Assembly: GCF_044324875.1 (NCBI RefSeq)
Contig: NZ_CP172189.1
Direction: 5' to 3' (one strand)
From: Escherichia coli
Lineage (GTDB): Bacteria; Pseudomonadota; Gammaproteobacteria; Enterobacterales; Enterobacteriaceae
Length of the DNA: 14,825 nt
Shown here: positions 173 to 9,221 of the stretch, piece after piece
Layout: every line of letters begins with the position of its first letter
Numbering within the stretch: the stretch's first letter is position 1
Notes under the pieces: generated by a model
Seen by the model: the letters and a program-made list of their open reading frames with translations, nothing else
What the model was told of the DNA's origin: nothing
The model's database searches: none
Translations under genes and position numbers: made by a program

Positions 173-310
173 CTACTGAACCGCGATCCCCGTCAGTTTA
201 GAAGAGGAGGATGGTGCGATGGTCCCTCCCTGAACATCACGTATATAGTTAGCCTGACATCCAACAAGGAGGTTTATCGCGAATATTCCCACAAAAAATC
301 TTTTCCTCAT
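173..310 (-). CDS. kil: Colicin E1 lysis (release) lipoprotein, 45 aa
   Basis: Hand-translated minus-strand [48 protein letters not shown], too short for the ORF track. Lipobox LLVGC, AGGA ribosome-binding site 9 nt upstream, and position downstream of cea/imm next to the origin. Confidence 0.85.
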   Translation of the reverse strand: MRKRFFVGIFAINLLVGCQANYIRDVQGGTIAPSSSSKLTGIAVQ

Positions 311-357
311 AACTCGATCCTTATAAAATGAAAAGAATATATGGCGAGGTTTAATTT

Positions 358-699
358 ATGAGCTTAAGATACTACATAAAAAATATTTTATTTGGCCTGT
401 ACTGCACACTTATATATATATACCTTATAACAAAAAACAGCGAAGGGTATTATTTCCTTGTGTCAGATAAGATGCTATATGCAATAGTGATAAGCACTAT
501 TCTATGTCCATATTCAAAATATGCTATTGAATACATAGCTTTTAACTTCATAAAGAAAGATTTTTTCGAAAGAAGAAAAAACCTAAATAACGCCCCCGTA
601 GCAAAATTAAACCTATTTATGCTATATAATCTACTTTGTTTGGTCCTAGCAATCCCATTTGGATTGCTAGGACTTTTTATATCAATAAAGAATAATTAA
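358..699 (+). CDS. imm: Colicin E1 immunity protein, 113 aa, hydrophobic inner-membrane protein
   Basis: 113-aa hydrophobic ORF convergent with cea, with stop codons overlapping by 4 bp at 696-699. Size and sequence fit the ColE1 Imm; GAGG ribosome-binding site at 346-350. Confidence 0.9.
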
Positions 700-2264
700 A
701 TCCCTAACACCTCATTTATAGTATTAAGTTTATTCTTATCAATATAGGAGCATAGAATTCCTGTAACAATAGCAATACCCCAAATACCTAATGTAGTTCC
801 AGCAAGCAAGCTAAAAAGTAAAGCAACAACATAACTCACCCCTGCATCTGCAGCTTTCTTCTCTAATGTAAGAAATAGTGGCTTCCAGTCACCTGTATCC
901 TTAATTTTTAGGATATCAGATACCACATCATATCCAAAAGAAACATGCCCCGTAATCTTCAAGTACTTGGCAAACTGATCTAAATGTTTAGCCCAGTCAT
1001 CATACTTCACCGATGCCAACGCATTAAAAATAGCATCACGATCGGCTTTGCTGAATTTCTTATTTAAAACATCCTTGTATTTTTCAAAAGCAGCGAGAGC
1101 TTCATTCACATTGCCGATTTTCTTACCTTTAGACTTATCAGCAAGTTCCTGTGCCATTTTCGAATATTTTTCACCATATTTTTCAGTCAGCGTTTGATAA
1201 AAGCTAACTGTTGCATCAACAGCATCCTTAATCTGTGAATTAAGGAGATTATTCTGTGCTTTTTTCAAATTTTCTTCAGCTTCATGAACACGAGCGATAC
1301 CGGCATTACGATTATTACTGACCTGAGAAATAGCCTTCTGGATCTGAGTTATATCAGCATTTATCCGGTTAATACGTGTTTCTGATGCTGTTACCTGTTT
1401 TTGTTTTTCTTCTCTAATCTTACCGGCCCCAACCCGTCGTCTGGTTGCTTCAAAAAAAGGACGGTTCTGAAGCGGATCATTGGCTCTTGGTGATAGTTTT
1501 TTGACCAGCTCATCCAGTTCTTTATATTTAGCGGATGCCTGAGCCAGTTCATTTCGTTTTCCAGCGAGCGTTTTCATTTCTGCATCACGGGCATGGATAC
1601 TGGAGCTTAAACGAGAATTGAGAGTCTTAATCTCTCCATCCATTTTCACCACTTCAGATTGTGCAGCAGAAAGTTTTTTTTGGGCGATCTCAACAGCTTT
1701 AGCTTCTTCACTCAATGCAGCCAGTCGTTTCTCTTCAGCTTCAGCCAGTTTCAACTGGCGTTCTGTTTCAGCCTTCTCCCGTTCAATCTCTTTACGTCGT
1801 TGTTCTGCTTCCTGAAAAGCCTTTTCTGCTGCTTCCGCTTCTTTACGGGCTTTTTCTTCTGCTTTCGCAAGGCGCAAACGCTCTGCTTCCGCCTGCATAG
1901 CTGCATTATTAGCATGAGCAAGCTCTGTTGCTGAAGGCGTACGTGAGGCATTGTGACGAAGAGCCTCATTCACGATATCCTTCAGGCGCTGAGTCAGCGC
2001 ATCCCTGTTTGCCTTTGCTTTCGCCTGTGCTTCCGCTGCAGCTTTTGCCCGGGCAGCCTGCTCTGCCTGTGTTTTCTTTAATTGAGCAGTAGACCATTTA
2101 GCAGTTGCATGAATAGCTGCAGAACTTTCACTTTTACTGCCTCCTTTTCCACCTCCGCCGCCAGAGCCACTCCCGTCAGGAGTACCATTCAAAAGAGTAA
2201 TAATTACCTGTCCCTTATCATCATAAGGAACACCATCTTTATAGTACGCTACCGCGGTTTCCAT
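696..2264 (-). CDS. cea: Colicin E1, 522 aa pore-forming bacteriocin
   Basis: 522-aa ORF starting [42 protein letters not shown] (glycine-rich translocation region), with a long Ala/Glu/Lys coiled-coil and a C-terminal hydrophobic hairpin ([26 protein letters not shown]) typical of the channel domain. Preceded by LexA boxes. Confidence 0.95.
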
Positions 2265-2310
2265 TATAAAATCCTCTTTGACTTTTAAAACAATAAGTTA
2301 AAAATAAATA

Positions 2311-2341
2311 CTGTACATATAACCACTGGTTTTATATACAG
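2311..2341 (-). promoter_or_regulatory. Tandem overlapping LexA (SOS) boxes in the cea promoter
   Basis: ctgtacatataaccactggttttatatacag carries two overlapping CTGT-N8-ACAG-type boxes. The minus strand has -35 TTGACA (2370-2375) upstream, then GAGGA and ATG at 2264. Confidence 0.85.
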
Positions 2342-2523
2342 CATAAAAGCTACGCCGCTGCATTTTCCCTGTCAAGACTGTGGACTTCCATTTTTGTGAA
2401 AACGATCAAAAAAACAGTCTTTCACACCACGCGCTATTCTCGCCCGATGCCACAAAAACCAGCACAAACATTACCGTTCTCAGACCTCATTATGTTTTAC
2501 TGAAACTATGAGATGAGACATCT

Positions 2524-2961
2524 ATGGGACACTGTCACTTTATGGCATGGCACACACTCCGGGACGCACTAAAAATGACAGGCAGATCGCGTTCACAGTT
2601 TTACCGTGATATGCGCGCAGGCCTTGTCAGTTACCGTACCGGCAGGGACGGACGACGGGAGTTTGAAACCAGTGAACTGATCCGGGCATACGGCGAATTA
2701 AAGCAGAATGAGACACCAGAAAGGCACAGTGAGGGACATGCAGAAAATCCACATGATCAGCAGACAGAACGCATTCTCCGGGAACTGAATGAGCTGAAAC
2801 AATGCCTGACGCTGATGCTTGAGGATAAACAGGCACAGGATATGGATCGCAGACGCCAGGAAGCAGAACGGGAACAGCTACAAAATGAGATAGCCCAGCT
2901 CAGGCAGGCACTGGAACTGGAAAAGAAACGGGGATTCTGGTCCAGGTTGTTCGGTCGCTGA
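2524..2961 (+). CDS. Hypothetical 145-aa protein with a probable N-terminal HTH (RSQFYRDMRAGLVSY) and a C-terminal charged coiled-coil; possibly the ColE1 exc1 product
   Basis: Intact ORF diverging from the cea promoter; position and size fit the ColE1 exc1 locus. Start codon uncertain (alternatives at Met7 and Met18). The assignment is from memory of plasmid layout, not a sequence match. Confidence 0.5.
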   Translation: MGHCHFMAWHTLRDALKMTGRSRSQFYRDMRAGLVSYRTGRDGRREFETSELIRAYGELKQNETPERHSEGHAENPHDQQTERILRELNELKQCLTLMLEDKQAQDMDRRRQEAEREQLQNEIAQLRQALELEKKRGFWSRLFGR

Positions 2962-3041
2962 ACGCTGTCAGAGACTGATGATAAAATAGTCTTCGGATAA
3001 TAACTCACCGAGAATAAATACTTTAAGGTAGGGAGACACTC

Positions 3042-7824: not shown

Positions 7825-7864
7825 TACCCCCATGAACAGAAATCCCCCTTACACGGAGGCATCA

Positions 7865-8056
7865 GTGACTAAACAGGAAAAAACCGCCCTTAACATGGCC
7901 CGCTTCATCAGAGGCCAGACATTAACGCTGCTGGAGAAACTCAACGAACTGGACGTGGATGAACAGGCAGATATCTGTGAATCGCTTCACGACCACGCCG
8001 ATGAGCTTTACCGCAGCTGCCTCGCACGTTTCGGGGATGACGGTGAAAACCTCTGA
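7865..8056 (+). CDS. rop: Rop/Rom, 63-aa RNA I-RNA II pairing modulator (four-helix bundle); GTG start
   Basis: V/MTKQEKTALNMARFIRGQTLTLLEKLNELDVDEQADICESLHDHADELYRSCLARFGDDGENL; GGAGG ribosome-binding site at 7855-7859. The ORF-track entry 7793-8056 is an upstream in-frame extension. Confidence 0.9.
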   Translation: MTKQEKTALNMARFIRGQTLTLLEKLNELDVDEQADICESLHDHADELYRSCLARFGDDGENL

Positions 8057-8164
8057 CACATGCAGCTCCCGGAGACGGACACAGCTTGTCTGTGAGCGGA
8101 TGCCGGGAGCAGACAAGCCCGTCAGGGCGCGTCAGCAGGTGTTAGCGGGTGTCGGGGCGCAGCC

Positions 8165-8260
8165 CTGACCCAGTCACGTAGCGATAGCGGAGTGTATACT
8201 AGCTTAACTATGCGGCATCAGTGCGGATTGTATGAAAAGTGCACCATAGCCGATGTGAAA
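8165..8260. other. oriT/bom (basis of mobility) region of module B with the nic-site motif
   Basis: cagtcacgtagcgatagcggagtgtatactAgcttaactatgcggc matches the pBR322/ColE1 bom nic region, between rop and the origin. Confidence 0.7.
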
Positions 8261-8439
8261 TGCCGCACAGATGCGTAAGGAGAAAATGCAACTTCCGACA
8301 CTCTTCCGCTTCCTCGCTCACTGACTCGCTACGCTCGGTCGTTCGGCTGCGGCGAGCGGTACCGGCGCACTCAAAGGCGGTAATACGGTTATCCACAGAA
8401 TCAGGGGAGAAGGCCGGAAAGAACATGTGAGCAAAAAGG

Positions 8440-9030
8440 CAAAGGCCAACGAAAGGCCGCGCCGCTGGCGTTTTTCCATAGGCTCCGCCCCCCTGACGAG
8501 CATCACAAAAATCGACGCTCAAGTCAGAGGTGGCGAAACCCGACAGGACTATAAAGATACCAGGCGTTTCCCCCTGGAAGCTCCCTCGTGCGCTCTCCTG
8601 TTCCGACCCTGCCGCTTACCGGATACCTGTCCGCCTTTCTCCCTTCGGGAAGCGTGGCGCTTTCTCATAGCTCACGCTGTTGGTATCTCGGCTTGGTGTA
8701 GGTCGTTCGCTCCAAGCTGGGCTGTGTGCACGAACCCCCCGTTCAGCCCGACCGCTGCGCCTTATCCGGTAACTATCGTCTTGAGTCCAACCCGGTAAGG
8801 CACGCCTTAACGCCACTGGCAGCAGCCACTGGTAACCGGATTAGCAGAGCGATGATGGCACAAACGGTGCTACAGAGTTCTTGAAGTAGTGGCCCGACTA
8901 CGGCTACACTGAAAGGACAGTATTTGGTATCTGCGCTCTGCTGAAGCCAGTTACCTTGGTTAAGCAGTTCCCCAACTGACCTAACCTTCGATCAAACCGC
9001 CTCCCCAGGCGGTTTTTTCGTTTACAGGCA
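8440..9030 (-). other. ColE1-type origin of replication, copy B (RNA II primer region, transcribed on the minus strand)
   Basis: Near-identity to the pMB1/pBR322 ori body (ggcgtttttccataggctccgcccccctgacgagcatcacaaaaatcgacgctcaagtcagaggtggcgaaacccgacaggactataaagataccaggcg...). Confidence 0.9.
8917..9024 (+). ncRNA. RNA I of origin copy B, with stem-loops 2 and 3 different from copy A
   Basis: Starts acagtatttggtatctgcgctctgctgaagccagttacctt as in copy A, then diverges (ggttaagcagttccccaactgacctaaccttcgatcaaaccgcctccccaggcggttttttcgttt). RNA II promoter follows at 9026-9075 on the minus strand. Confidence 0.75.
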
Positions 9031-9080
9031 GCAGATTACGCGCAGAAAAAAAGGATCTCAAGAAGATCCTTTTAACTTTT

Positions 9081-9221
9081 CTACTGAACCGCGATCCCCG
9101 TCAGTTTAGAAGAGGAGGATGGTGCGACAGTCCCTCCCTGAACATCGCGGATGTAATTAGCTTGGCAGCCTGATAGCAAAGCCATCAAGACAAGCATCCC
9201 TCCTGATAATATCATTTTCAT
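9081..9221 (-). CDS. Colicin lysis (release) lipoprotein, 46 aa, of the second colicin locus
   Basis: Hand-translated [46 protein letters not shown]; lipobox LLSGC; GAGG ribosome-binding site upstream. Mature part almost identical to Kil of module A. Confidence 0.8.

Follow-up and report, generated by a model that had tools for sequence, protein, structure and literature searches.

Comparison of the two colicin lysis genes that lie in one 14,825-nt stretch of Escherichia coli DNA (the window) makes it highly probable that the genes share their 3' half as a piece of ColE1-type backbone, and that their 5' halves arrived with two different colicin cassettes. The initial annotation had suggested that a breakpoint of recombination lies within the lysis gene, at the end of the conserved block that flanks the origin, and this is backed by the point where homology ends, by a switch of informative sites, by the reassortment of sequence classes among Col plasmids and by synonymous variation. 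We refine its position: the junction is seven codons 3' of the lipobox Cys rather than at the Cys.

Results

The lysis gene of module A, kil of the colicin E1 operon (173-310, minus strand), encodes a 45-aa precursor, and the lysis gene of module B, which belongs to a colicin Y-type operon (lysis B; 9081-9221, minus strand, ATG at 9221), encodes one of 46 aa. According to the codon table, kil consists of the signal peptide codons (310-260), the codons of Cys and QANYIR (259-239), a DVQGGT core (238-221), a tail (220-176) and the stop codon (175-173); the corresponding parts of lysis B, on the same strand, are 9221-9168, 9167-9147, 9146-9129, 9128-9084 and 9083-9081. The product of kil reads MRKRFFVGIFAINLLVGC and continues with 27 residues, and that of lysis B consists of 19 residues and a further 27. 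The predicted lipoproteins start with MRKR in A and MK in B, their lipoboxes are LVGC and LSGC, both signals are canonical for lipoproteins and 27 residues follow the lipobox site in each. Both proteins are members of the PF02402 family, with profile scores of 109.2 bits for kil and 83.2 bits for lysis B (cut-off 27), and the domain is present in all of the 120 homologues listed except one 25-residue fragment; the NCBIfam profiles gave no matches to either lysis protein. In pCol-Let and its relatives lysis B is annotated as the 141-nt gene 'crl'. An upstream GTG start for this gene (52-aa ORF, 9081-9239) was rejected, as the ATG at 9221 is preceded at 7 nt by a GAGGG Shine-Dalgarno sequence and is the start used in GenBank annotations. 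The gene order is cea-imm-kil in module A, and the equivalent order for module B is seen in intact relatives.

Members of PF02402 undergo Sec export and lipid modification, activate phospholipase A and cause quasi-lysis (PMC2896534); by analogy with them, kil and lysis B would serve colicin release by phospholipase A-dependent quasi-lysis. The family-wide median identity is 35% for the signal peptide, which falls into 15 classes, and 89% for the mature peptide, the latter value being inflated by the collection of the homologues by similarity to the query. A variable signal peptide joined to a near-invariant mature peptide is a trait of the whole PF02402 family.

The mature parts of the two window proteins differ solely by an I/V replacement, as had been claimed before; the accompanying description of the signal peptides as unrelated has to be weakened to no detectable similarity, since past the ATG and the lipobox Gly nothing significant is found between the two signal-peptide regions (against shuffled sequences, p=0.13 for DNA and p=0.06 for protein). 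The earlier statement that the DNA is near-identical up to about codon 20 proved wrong. Near-identity begins at Asp+7, that is codon 25 of kil and codon 26 of lysis B (window 238 and 9146), 21 nt 3' of the lipobox Cys. From the Cys codon to Arg+6 the two genes differ at 6 of 21 nt, and from there to the stop at 2 of 66 (Fisher p=0.002); such single-pair counts are small and individual pairs reach only p values of 0.002-0.05. Third positions differ in 7 of the 8 codons from the lipobox Gly to Arg+6 (G-C-Q-A-N-Y-I-R), all synonymously, versus 1 of 21 in the tail (p=4e-5), and the divergence step is far past chance in a max-chi-square permutation test (p<=2e-4). The codon-wise counts thus separate the protein boundary, at Cys, from the DNA boundary, 21 nt further 3'. 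QANYIR is the same in protein and yet diverged in DNA, hence purifying selection operates on the mature peptide. The optimum of the max-chi-square scan itself (284/283) was discarded as an artefact, because the MAFFT alignment took in the 5' region, where the sequences are non-homologous; the junction is better placed by the codon-anchored table and by the triplet comparison described below.

Near-identity of the two modules extends beyond the stop codon and takes in the terminator and the RNA II promoter, ending near window 118 in A and 9026 in B. The shared block thus covers, on the minus strand, 118-221 beside kil (3' tail, stop, terminator hairpin 164-142, RNA II promoter) and 9026-9129 beside lysis B (tail, stop, terminator hairpin 9073-9049, RNA II promoter). 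Over a 17-nt part of the core and this block up to the RNA II promoter, 5 of 121 nt differ, which is the same level as in the remaining backbone. Read off the sequence beside kil, the hexamers TTGAGA (-35, 153-148) and TAATCT (-10, 130-125) are what we take, by analogy with ColE1/pMB1, to be the RNA II promoter; the hairpin is terminator-like with a T run after it, and 9 nt past the stop codon it overlaps the -35 hexamer. On the origin side the block is limited by a diverged RNA I patch of about 100 nt. The pColE1-type RNA I (9-113, plus strand; Rfam RF00106, 73.8 bits) and the pCol-Let-type RNA I, another allele (8919-9021, plus strand; RF00106, 83.4 bits), are only 46-58% identical inside backbone that is 95-100% identical, and the allele of 8919-9021 also occurs in the ColE1-type plasmids L001 and L002. 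Each lysis gene therefore adjoins what its RNA I and RNA II promoter mark as a ColE1-type replicon. Over some 2.4 kb of mob, rop and ori the two backbones show homology of about 91-100%, which ends inside the lysis gene.

The colicin E1 cassette (239-2271, minus strand) holds imm (358-699, plus) and cea (696-2264) in addition to the 5' part of kil, has backbone homology on both flanks and is 100% identical to 6647-bp pColE1 plasmids. Its second edge precedes the ATG of cea by about 10 nt, where homology to pCol-Let-like backbone resumes; conserved inverted CTGT...ACAG motifs upstream of cea can be read as LexA (SOS) boxes. The colicin Y cassette is a remnant (9147-10103, minus strand) with the 5' part of lysis B, the immunity gene cui (9341-9865, plus), on which PF03857 was found, and what is left of cya, its 3' end (9893 to about 10103). 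As far as window 10107 the identity to pCol-Let-like plasmids is 99.8-99.9%. An IS21-family element cuts cya, with istA matches beginning at about 10092-10102 depending on the record, and its insertion has deprived lysis B of the upstream colicin gene and SOS promoter in the window.

A triplet comparison of A and B with the ColE1-type kil of L001 located the crossover. More than 60 informative sites between 389 and 239 unite A with L001, and the following 6 sites (218-182) unite A with B (hypergeometric p=2.6e-7). The single switch, which falls after the A=L001 site at 239 and before the A=B site at 218, spans the 17-nt tract GATGTTCAGGGAGGGAC, which encodes Asp-Val-Gln-Gly-Gly-Th (222-238, minus strand), is identical in lysis B (9130-9146, minus strand) and is the interval holding the crossover in kil. 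This tract is unchanged in 8 of the 14 sequences compared, namely both window copies and L001-L006.

The comparison with lysis genes of other Col plasmids, suggested earlier as a way to see whether the breakpoint recurs, covered 13 distinct loci (14 sequences), a small hand-picked sample rather than a systematic survey. Junctions do recur: in L005 at the Cys codon, in L006 within the core and in L010 near codon +20. Signal, tail and RNA I classes reassort freely among these loci; the ColE1-type signal is found with 3 tails, and tail 'a' with 3 signal classes. Six plasmids are partitioned differently by each of three neighbouring segments: the 5' part of the lysis gene groups them by colicin type, and the 3' tail and the RNA I patch each group them in another way. 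In the 3' block the cloacin-type gene differs from kil of module A at 1 position, ColY and ColR at 5 each and the other ColE1 kil at 10. An ungapped count of 38 differences for L010 was discarded, a 1-nt indel having made it an artefact. Synonymous variation in the tail is seen in L001, L007, L010, L012, L014 and L018, the last 25 nt or so being less variable. Because these sites vary among other Col plasmids, the identity of A and B there, apart from the last 25 nt or so, reflects shared ancestry and not DNA constraint.

Natural ColE1 plasmids (ECOR isolates, pSMS35_8 and the 5.2-kb plasmids of S. sonnei) have 127/138 identity to the 1979 ColE1 kil (PMC6234761, Table 3). Kil of module A is the laboratory-type allele (99-100% to NC_001371 and the 6647-bp plasmids), whereas L001 and L002 carry the other one. 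The published table gives only percent identity; here the allele differences are seen to cluster, 8-9 of the 10 falling within codons 25-46. Going beyond that report, the laboratory-type tail of A matches the tails of ColY, ColR and cloacin-type genes. Both alleles are common, with about 146 and 68 records in PLSDB.

Window 1-420 matches the free 6647-bp pColE1 plasmid L020 exactly, and window 8900-9340 the free pCol-Let-like plasmid L021. Therefore, the mosaic genes predate the cointegrate. The junction sequences of the two genes recur in 146 and 11 independent plasmid records. The window itself, in which both lysis genes and two homologous, directly oriented backbones are present, is a three-parent recombinant of such plasmids and switches between them within exc and mob of the shared backbone; its cya/IS junction is spanned by no record in PLSDB or complete RefSeq E. 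coli.

Discussion

One would argue that selection alone, acting on genes that diverged vertically along their whole length, had frozen the mature peptide and left the signal peptide to evolve fast, which would give a sharp protein boundary at Cys. The gap between signal and mature-peptide identity across the family and the QANYIR codons, conserved in protein though diverged in DNA, agree with this. However, selection on protein cannot produce 20 of 21 identical third positions in the tail beside 7 of 8 differing in equally conserved codons, and it explains neither the conflicting groupings of plasmids by tail, 5' part and RNA I region nor the identity that reaches into non-coding DNA, so we regard it as very unlikely as a full account. 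Another possibility is a constraint on DNA or RNA: the 3' end of the lysis gene would be kept identical through its overlap with termination, the RNA II promoter or another RNA element, as the overlap of the terminator hairpin with the -35 hexamer and the near-invariance of the last 25 nt in most ColE1-origin plasmids sampled could suggest. This too is improbable, since codons +12 to +19 (T V A P S S S S) are synonymously variable among plasmids with the same origin type (L001/L002, L007, L010, L018) and yet identical in A and B. The 8-9 tail differences between the two common ColE1 kil alleles likewise indicate that these positions are free to vary. Nevertheless, nearly all of the sampled plasmids with a ColE1 origin conserve the terminator/promoter and about the last 25 nt of the gene, and part of the identity there could be due to functional constraint and not to recent shared ancestry.

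The two copies might also have been made alike after joining, by gene conversion or an assembly artefact inside the two-origin cointegrate. The presence of both genes and of two directly oriented backbones in the window, its descent from three plasmid types and the lack of the cya/IS junction in public records would fit such an event, which is nevertheless refuted by the exact matches of both regions to free plasmids and by the independent records of the junction sequences; we consider it extremely unlikely.

Thus the reading we favor is a 3' half shared as backbone and 5' halves brought in by cassettes, and it builds on what was observed directly, namely how the genes are built, the step in their divergence, the groupings that conflict and the junctions recurring in other plasmids. 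Both genes are ordinary colicin lysis (bacteriocin-release) lipoprotein genes that straddle a cassette edge in a common ColE1-like backbone. To the backbone belong mob, rop and ori, the RNA II promoter, the terminator of the operon and 22 codons at the end of the lysis gene, and its homology between pColE1-type and pCol-Let-type plasmids is about 95-97%. The cassette is not the same in the two plasmids and consists of the colicin ORF, the immunity gene and the intergenic region, together with the codons of the signal peptide and the first ones of the mature part. Co-resident Col plasmids would swap cassettes between backbones by homologous recombination, with one crossover in the conserved mature-peptide coding sequence or the origin block and the other in the conserved SOS-promoter/5'-UTR region or deeper in the exc/mob backbone. 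On the lysis side, the junction of the A/B pair falls within the 17-nt tract coding for DVQGGT. Independently of recombination, strong purifying selection on the mature lipopeptide holds QANYIR constant even over old, diverged DNA. Signal peptides require just a charged N-terminus, a hydrophobic core and a lipobox, and therefore drift or get replaced. The mechanism would be homologous exchange of the RecA type, and either lineage may be the recombinant.

The window genes are full members of the known PF02402 systems, with sequences identical to deposited plasmids (ColE1 Kil, pCol-Let colicin Y lysis protein). The 45-46 aa precursor, the lipobox, the 27-aa mature peptide, the last place in the colicin operon and the position beside a ColE1-type origin are all alike; the genes themselves show no difference, lysis B of the window merely standing without its colicin gene and SOS promoter. 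Colicin operons and plasmid segments are exchanged via recombination in conserved stretches, which gives rise to chimeric clusters. Riley and co-workers, and Roos, Harkness and Braun in 1989, reportedly described such diversifying recombination and the mosaic colicin gene clusters and Col plasmids. The lysis-gene mosaic is an ordinary instance of this known colicin-plasmid mosaicism. Diversifying recombination of colicin clusters is also cited as a concept in PMC5821083. In our case the conserved stretches are the mature-peptide coding region with the origin block and, on the other side, the SOS promoter region. The classical cases concern colicin protein domains or whole immunity regions, whereas here the junction is inside a 140-nt accessory gene; a full-text literature search on lysis-gene recombination found no specific report. 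ColE1 multi-replicon cointegrates that arise via IS elements or transposons, and shared-backbone recombination, are documented as well (PMC8683028). The window is a cointegrate or backbone recombinant of that kind, the difference being that ColE1 was there joined to large replicons, and that the fusion here is one of two or three small ColE1-type plasmids with each other.

It could be that the mature-peptide sequence of the lysis gene and the SOS promoter/leader are general homology arms for moving any colicin cassette from one ColE1-type replicon to another without promoter or terminator, and that the signal peptide always travels along as functionally matched and not merely linked. Such a match could concern, for example, release kinetics or a stable signal peptide. 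None of the 13 loci has a cassette with a foreign signal peptide, and junctions in the mature region recur; however, both are equally expected from homology-dependent crossover alone, and we hold the idea to be doubtful.

For the annotation and typing of Col plasmids, the 3' half of the lysis gene is unusable for typing, and labels such as 'colicin R/Y/E1 lysis protein' mirror the signal-peptide part only. Protein-level boundaries should, moreover, not be taken for DNA breakpoints. The lysis-gene mosaic leaves the current understanding of colicin biology unchanged. It provides a nucleotide-level example of colicin cassette swapping between small ColE1-type plasmids, in which the cassette begins shortly before the start codon of the colicin gene and reaches to about codon 25 of the lysis gene, and the backbone supplies promoter, terminator and replication control.

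Results

Two lysis genes with near-identical mature peptides

Each of the two ColE1-type origins in the window is adjoined by one lysis gene, both on the minus strand: kil of the colicin E1 operon at 173-310 in module A, the pColE1-type part (PF02402, 109 bits), and the lysis gene of the colicin Y operon at 9081-9221 in module B, the pCol-Let-type part (PF02402, 83 bits). In translation, the kil precursor of A consists of MRKRFFVGIFAINLLVGC before the lipobox cysteine and a mature peptide of 27 residues; that of B has 19 residues followed by a mature peptide of 27. The initial annotation described the mature peptides as near-identical, and indeed they differ by a single I/V exchange after the cysteine. 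It also called the signal peptides unrelated, which can be supported only in the sense that no similarity is detectable: without the ATG and the lipobox glycine, the two regions resemble each other no more than shuffled sequences do (DNA p=0.13, protein p=0.06), and both are of the typical lipoprotein kind.

The near-identity of the DNA had been placed as far as about codon 20, and its actual limit is kil codon 25. From the lipobox glycine to Arg+6 (GCQANYIR, numbered from the lipobox cysteine) the third position differs between A and B in 7 of 8 codons, always synonymously, whereas from Asp+7 to the stop only 2 of 66 nt differ (ACC/ACT and ATC/GTC). Across this boundary the contrast is significant for all differences (6/21 versus 2/66, p=0.002) and for third positions (7/8 versus 1/21, p=4e-5). 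The divergence is not uniform over the gene; there is a sharp step at window 239/238 in A and 9147/9146 in B, 21 nt 3' of the Cys codon. QANYIR is kept identical by purifying selection acting on diverged DNA; in the tail, the 3' remainder of the gene, it is the DNA itself that is identical.

The near-identity extends past the stop codon, through a terminator-like hairpin (164-142, minus strand, in A, where it overlaps the -35 hexamer of the RNA II promoter; 9049-9073 in B), to about window 118 / 9026. TTGAGA at 153-148 and TAATCT at 130-125 can be read off the sequence; we take them to be the RNA II promoter hexamers, as recognised from the ColE1/pMB1 promoter. This colicin-operon terminator hairpin starts 9 nt after the lysis stop and encloses the -35 TTGAGA of the RNA II primer promoter. 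Because the lysis gene and RNA II share one direction of transcription, read-through from the SOS-induced operon would enter the replication primer region. Over the stretch that begins with the core, a 17-nt tract encoding DVQGGT, and takes in the RNA II promoter, 5 of 121 positions differ between A and B, a level equal to that of the whole backbone. Past the shared block follows a patch of ~100 nt with 46-58% identity that coincides with RNA I (Rfam, plus strand; 9-113 in the pColE1-type and 8919-9021 in the pCol-Let-type origin), and beyond it the identity is 91-100% over another ~2.2 kb, via rop and mob. The simplest description is that the A and B plasmids have a common backbone, ~3-5% diverged, which ends inside the lysis gene.

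Between the two RNA I genes the identity is only ~50%, despite a 95-100% identical backbone on either side. Their alleles reassort among colicin types: that of A also occurs in ColR and in the lysis loci L005 and L018, that of B in the ColE1-type plasmids L001 and L002 and in L010. Such differing alleles would be expected to let both origins coexist in one molecule.

Conflicting groupings and recurrent junctions

Six sequences were compared over three adjacent segments: A, B, an 8.9-kb ColE1-type plasmid (L001), a 5.15-kb ColE1-type plasmid of S. sonnei (L002), a colicin R plasmid (L003) and pCol-Let (L004). The upstream region, signal peptide and CQANYIR codons separate A, L001 and L002 from B, L003 and L004; the tail separates A, B, L003 and L004 from L001 and L002; the RNA I patch separates A and L003 from the other four. 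In the triplet A/L001/B, A goes with L001 at more than 60 informative sites (389-239) and with B at the next six (218-182), with one exception further on (hypergeometric p=2.6e-7 for the switch). The crossover falls within the 17-nt tract GATGTTCAGGGAGGGAC (238-222 / 9146-9130), which 8 of the 14 compared sequences share without change. The three partitions and the switch within this core bear out the suggestion of a recombination breakpoint inside the lysis gene, at the end of the origin-flanking block.

The breakpoint had also been considered as a possibly recurrent one, and in the DNA of nine further lysis proteins (L005-L019) junctions do recur, at varying places. L005 joins a cloacin-type signal peptide to A-type DNA from exactly the Cys codon on; L006 joins a ColE1-type 5' half to a cloacin DF13-type tail and origin, with the junction within the core; in L010, whose immunity gene is of colicin K/5/10 type, and in L018 the synonymous sites are diverged through VAPSSSS, and the common sequence sets in near codon +20. 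Three tails were found with the ColE1-type signal, and three signal classes with tail 'a'. The lysis genes of L012 and L014, on large plasmids, have synonymous differences throughout, thus the tail is not intrinsically frozen. The DNase-colicin loci L014 and L015 lie on contigs of ~71-76 kb and carry a ColE1 terminator/RNA II-promoter remnant (AAAGGATCTCAGAGAGATCCTTTTTTCTGCGC) ~10-45 nt past the lysis stop (locus ~855-890), followed by unrelated sequence; it looks like a vestige left when the cassette was transferred from a ColE1-type plasmid.

Module A carries the kil allele of classical laboratory ColE1 (99% identity with NC_001371 and 100% with numerous 6647-bp plasmids), for which PLSDB has 146 records at 99% or above; ~68 records at 92-93% represent the L001-type allele. 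Of the 10 differences between the two alleles, 8-9 fall within codons 25-46. Natural ColE1 plasmids have been described as 127/138 identical to the 1979 kil (PMC6234761 Table 3).

Among 52 full-length cluster representatives, a set selected by similarity to the query and so favouring conserved mature parts, signal peptides have a median pairwise identity of 35% and mature peptides one of 89%. About 15 signal classes are present, and one mature peptide is shared by several of them. In colicin lysis proteins generally, the signal peptide is thus variable and the mature lipopeptide near-invariant.

Composition of the window

With its 14,825 bases, the window behaves like a circular molecule in which small ColE1-type colicin plasmids are joined as a cointegrate. 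It is a recombinant of three of them and one IS, with switch points at ~3300, ~6650 and 10104-12742: 12743-14825 plus 1 to ~3300 matches the common 6647-bp pColE1 plasmid at 100% identity, ~3300-6650 matches 8.9-kb pSMS35_8-like ColE1 plasmids at 99.7-100%, and ~6650-10107 matches pCol-Let-like colicin Y plasmids at 98-100%. The parental switches are located within the common exc and mob backbone. An insert of 2.3 kb at 3615-5930, in part of low G+C (37-39% over 4200-5400), is held in common with the 8.9-kb ColE1-type plasmids at 99.7-100% and is mostly unannotated in those; it contains an N-terminal transposase fragment (3987-4205, 72 aa, PF01527) and a 108-aa ORF (5452-5778) without Pfam match.

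The IS21-family element (~10104-12742) carries istA (10225-11871), istB (within 11645-12643) and, at both ends, repeated CGATCA..TTTGGCAT motifs. Its direct neighbours are the truncated colicin Y gene on one side and a truncated relaxase gene on the other (ORF 12660-13451, ~240 codons matching the full-length copy at 5934-7535). Because its two flanks derive from different plasmids, it marks a fusion or deletion junction and not a simple insertion. The cya/IS junction was found in none of the records of PLSDB and complete RefSeq E. coli. The colicin Y operon is defective (9081-10103): cya is reduced to its last ~70 codons and the SOS promoter is gone, therefore lysis gene B is without its operon promoter. 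With its intact immunity gene cui (9341-9865, PF03857), the plasmid should remain able to give immunity to colicin Y/U but should not produce the colicin.

Discussion

We consider it highly probable that the lysis gene straddles the border between the colicin cassette and the ColE1-type backbone, and that homologous recombination together with selection yields the observed anatomy, divergence step, incongruent groupings and recurrence. Co-resident Col plasmids would recombine homologously, with the crossover in the conserved block of mature peptide, terminator and promoter, and purifying selection on the mature lipopeptide together with relaxed constraint on the signal peptide would produce the picture seen at the protein level. 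We infer both the enzymology, a RecA-type exchange possibly via cointegrates like the window, and the direction of exchange.

The three other explanations are weak or contradicted. One would argue that a constraint on the tail at the DNA level keeps it identical, and such a constraint possibly contributes in the last ~25 nt; as the main cause it is improbable, since the tails of other plasmids reassort and vary synonymously. Selection alone is less probable still, being at odds with the synonymous-site contrast between the A and B codons. Conversion or an artefact within the cointegrate is the least credible: window 1-420 is present exactly in the free 6647-bp pColE1 (L020), and window 8900-9340 exactly in a free pCol-Let-like plasmid (L021). 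The mosaic thus existed before the cointegrate formed, and neither conversion nor assembly within the cointegrate produced it.

That lysis proteins show this pattern of conservation, and that colicin clusters and Col plasmids are chimeric, has been established for a long time, a picture that reportedly goes back to Riley, Braun, Pugsley, Luirink/Oudega and a 2007 review by Cascales. The lysis-gene mosaic is an instance of this known phenomenon, and both lysis genes are identical to deposited sequences. The concept of such chimerism has been discussed (PMC5821083) and ColE1 cointegrates have been documented (PMC8683028).

The recombination reading also concerns the other edge of the cassette. 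In their colicin promoter and leader, the plasmids for colicin E1 and colicin Y are ~92% identical (window 2272-2400 versus 5447-5570 of L021), and between pColE1 and L021 this homology resumes abruptly ~10 nt before the colicin start codon, taking in the Shine-Dalgarno sequence and paired inverted CTGT...ACAG motifs, read as putative LexA (SOS) boxes. Regulation is therefore part of the backbone, outside the toxin cassette. The end of the homology before the start codon therefore defines the variable cassette as colicin ORF, immunity gene and 5' part of the lysis gene (239-2271 in module A). It has backbone on both flanks, which is the geometry required for exchange by two homologous crossovers.
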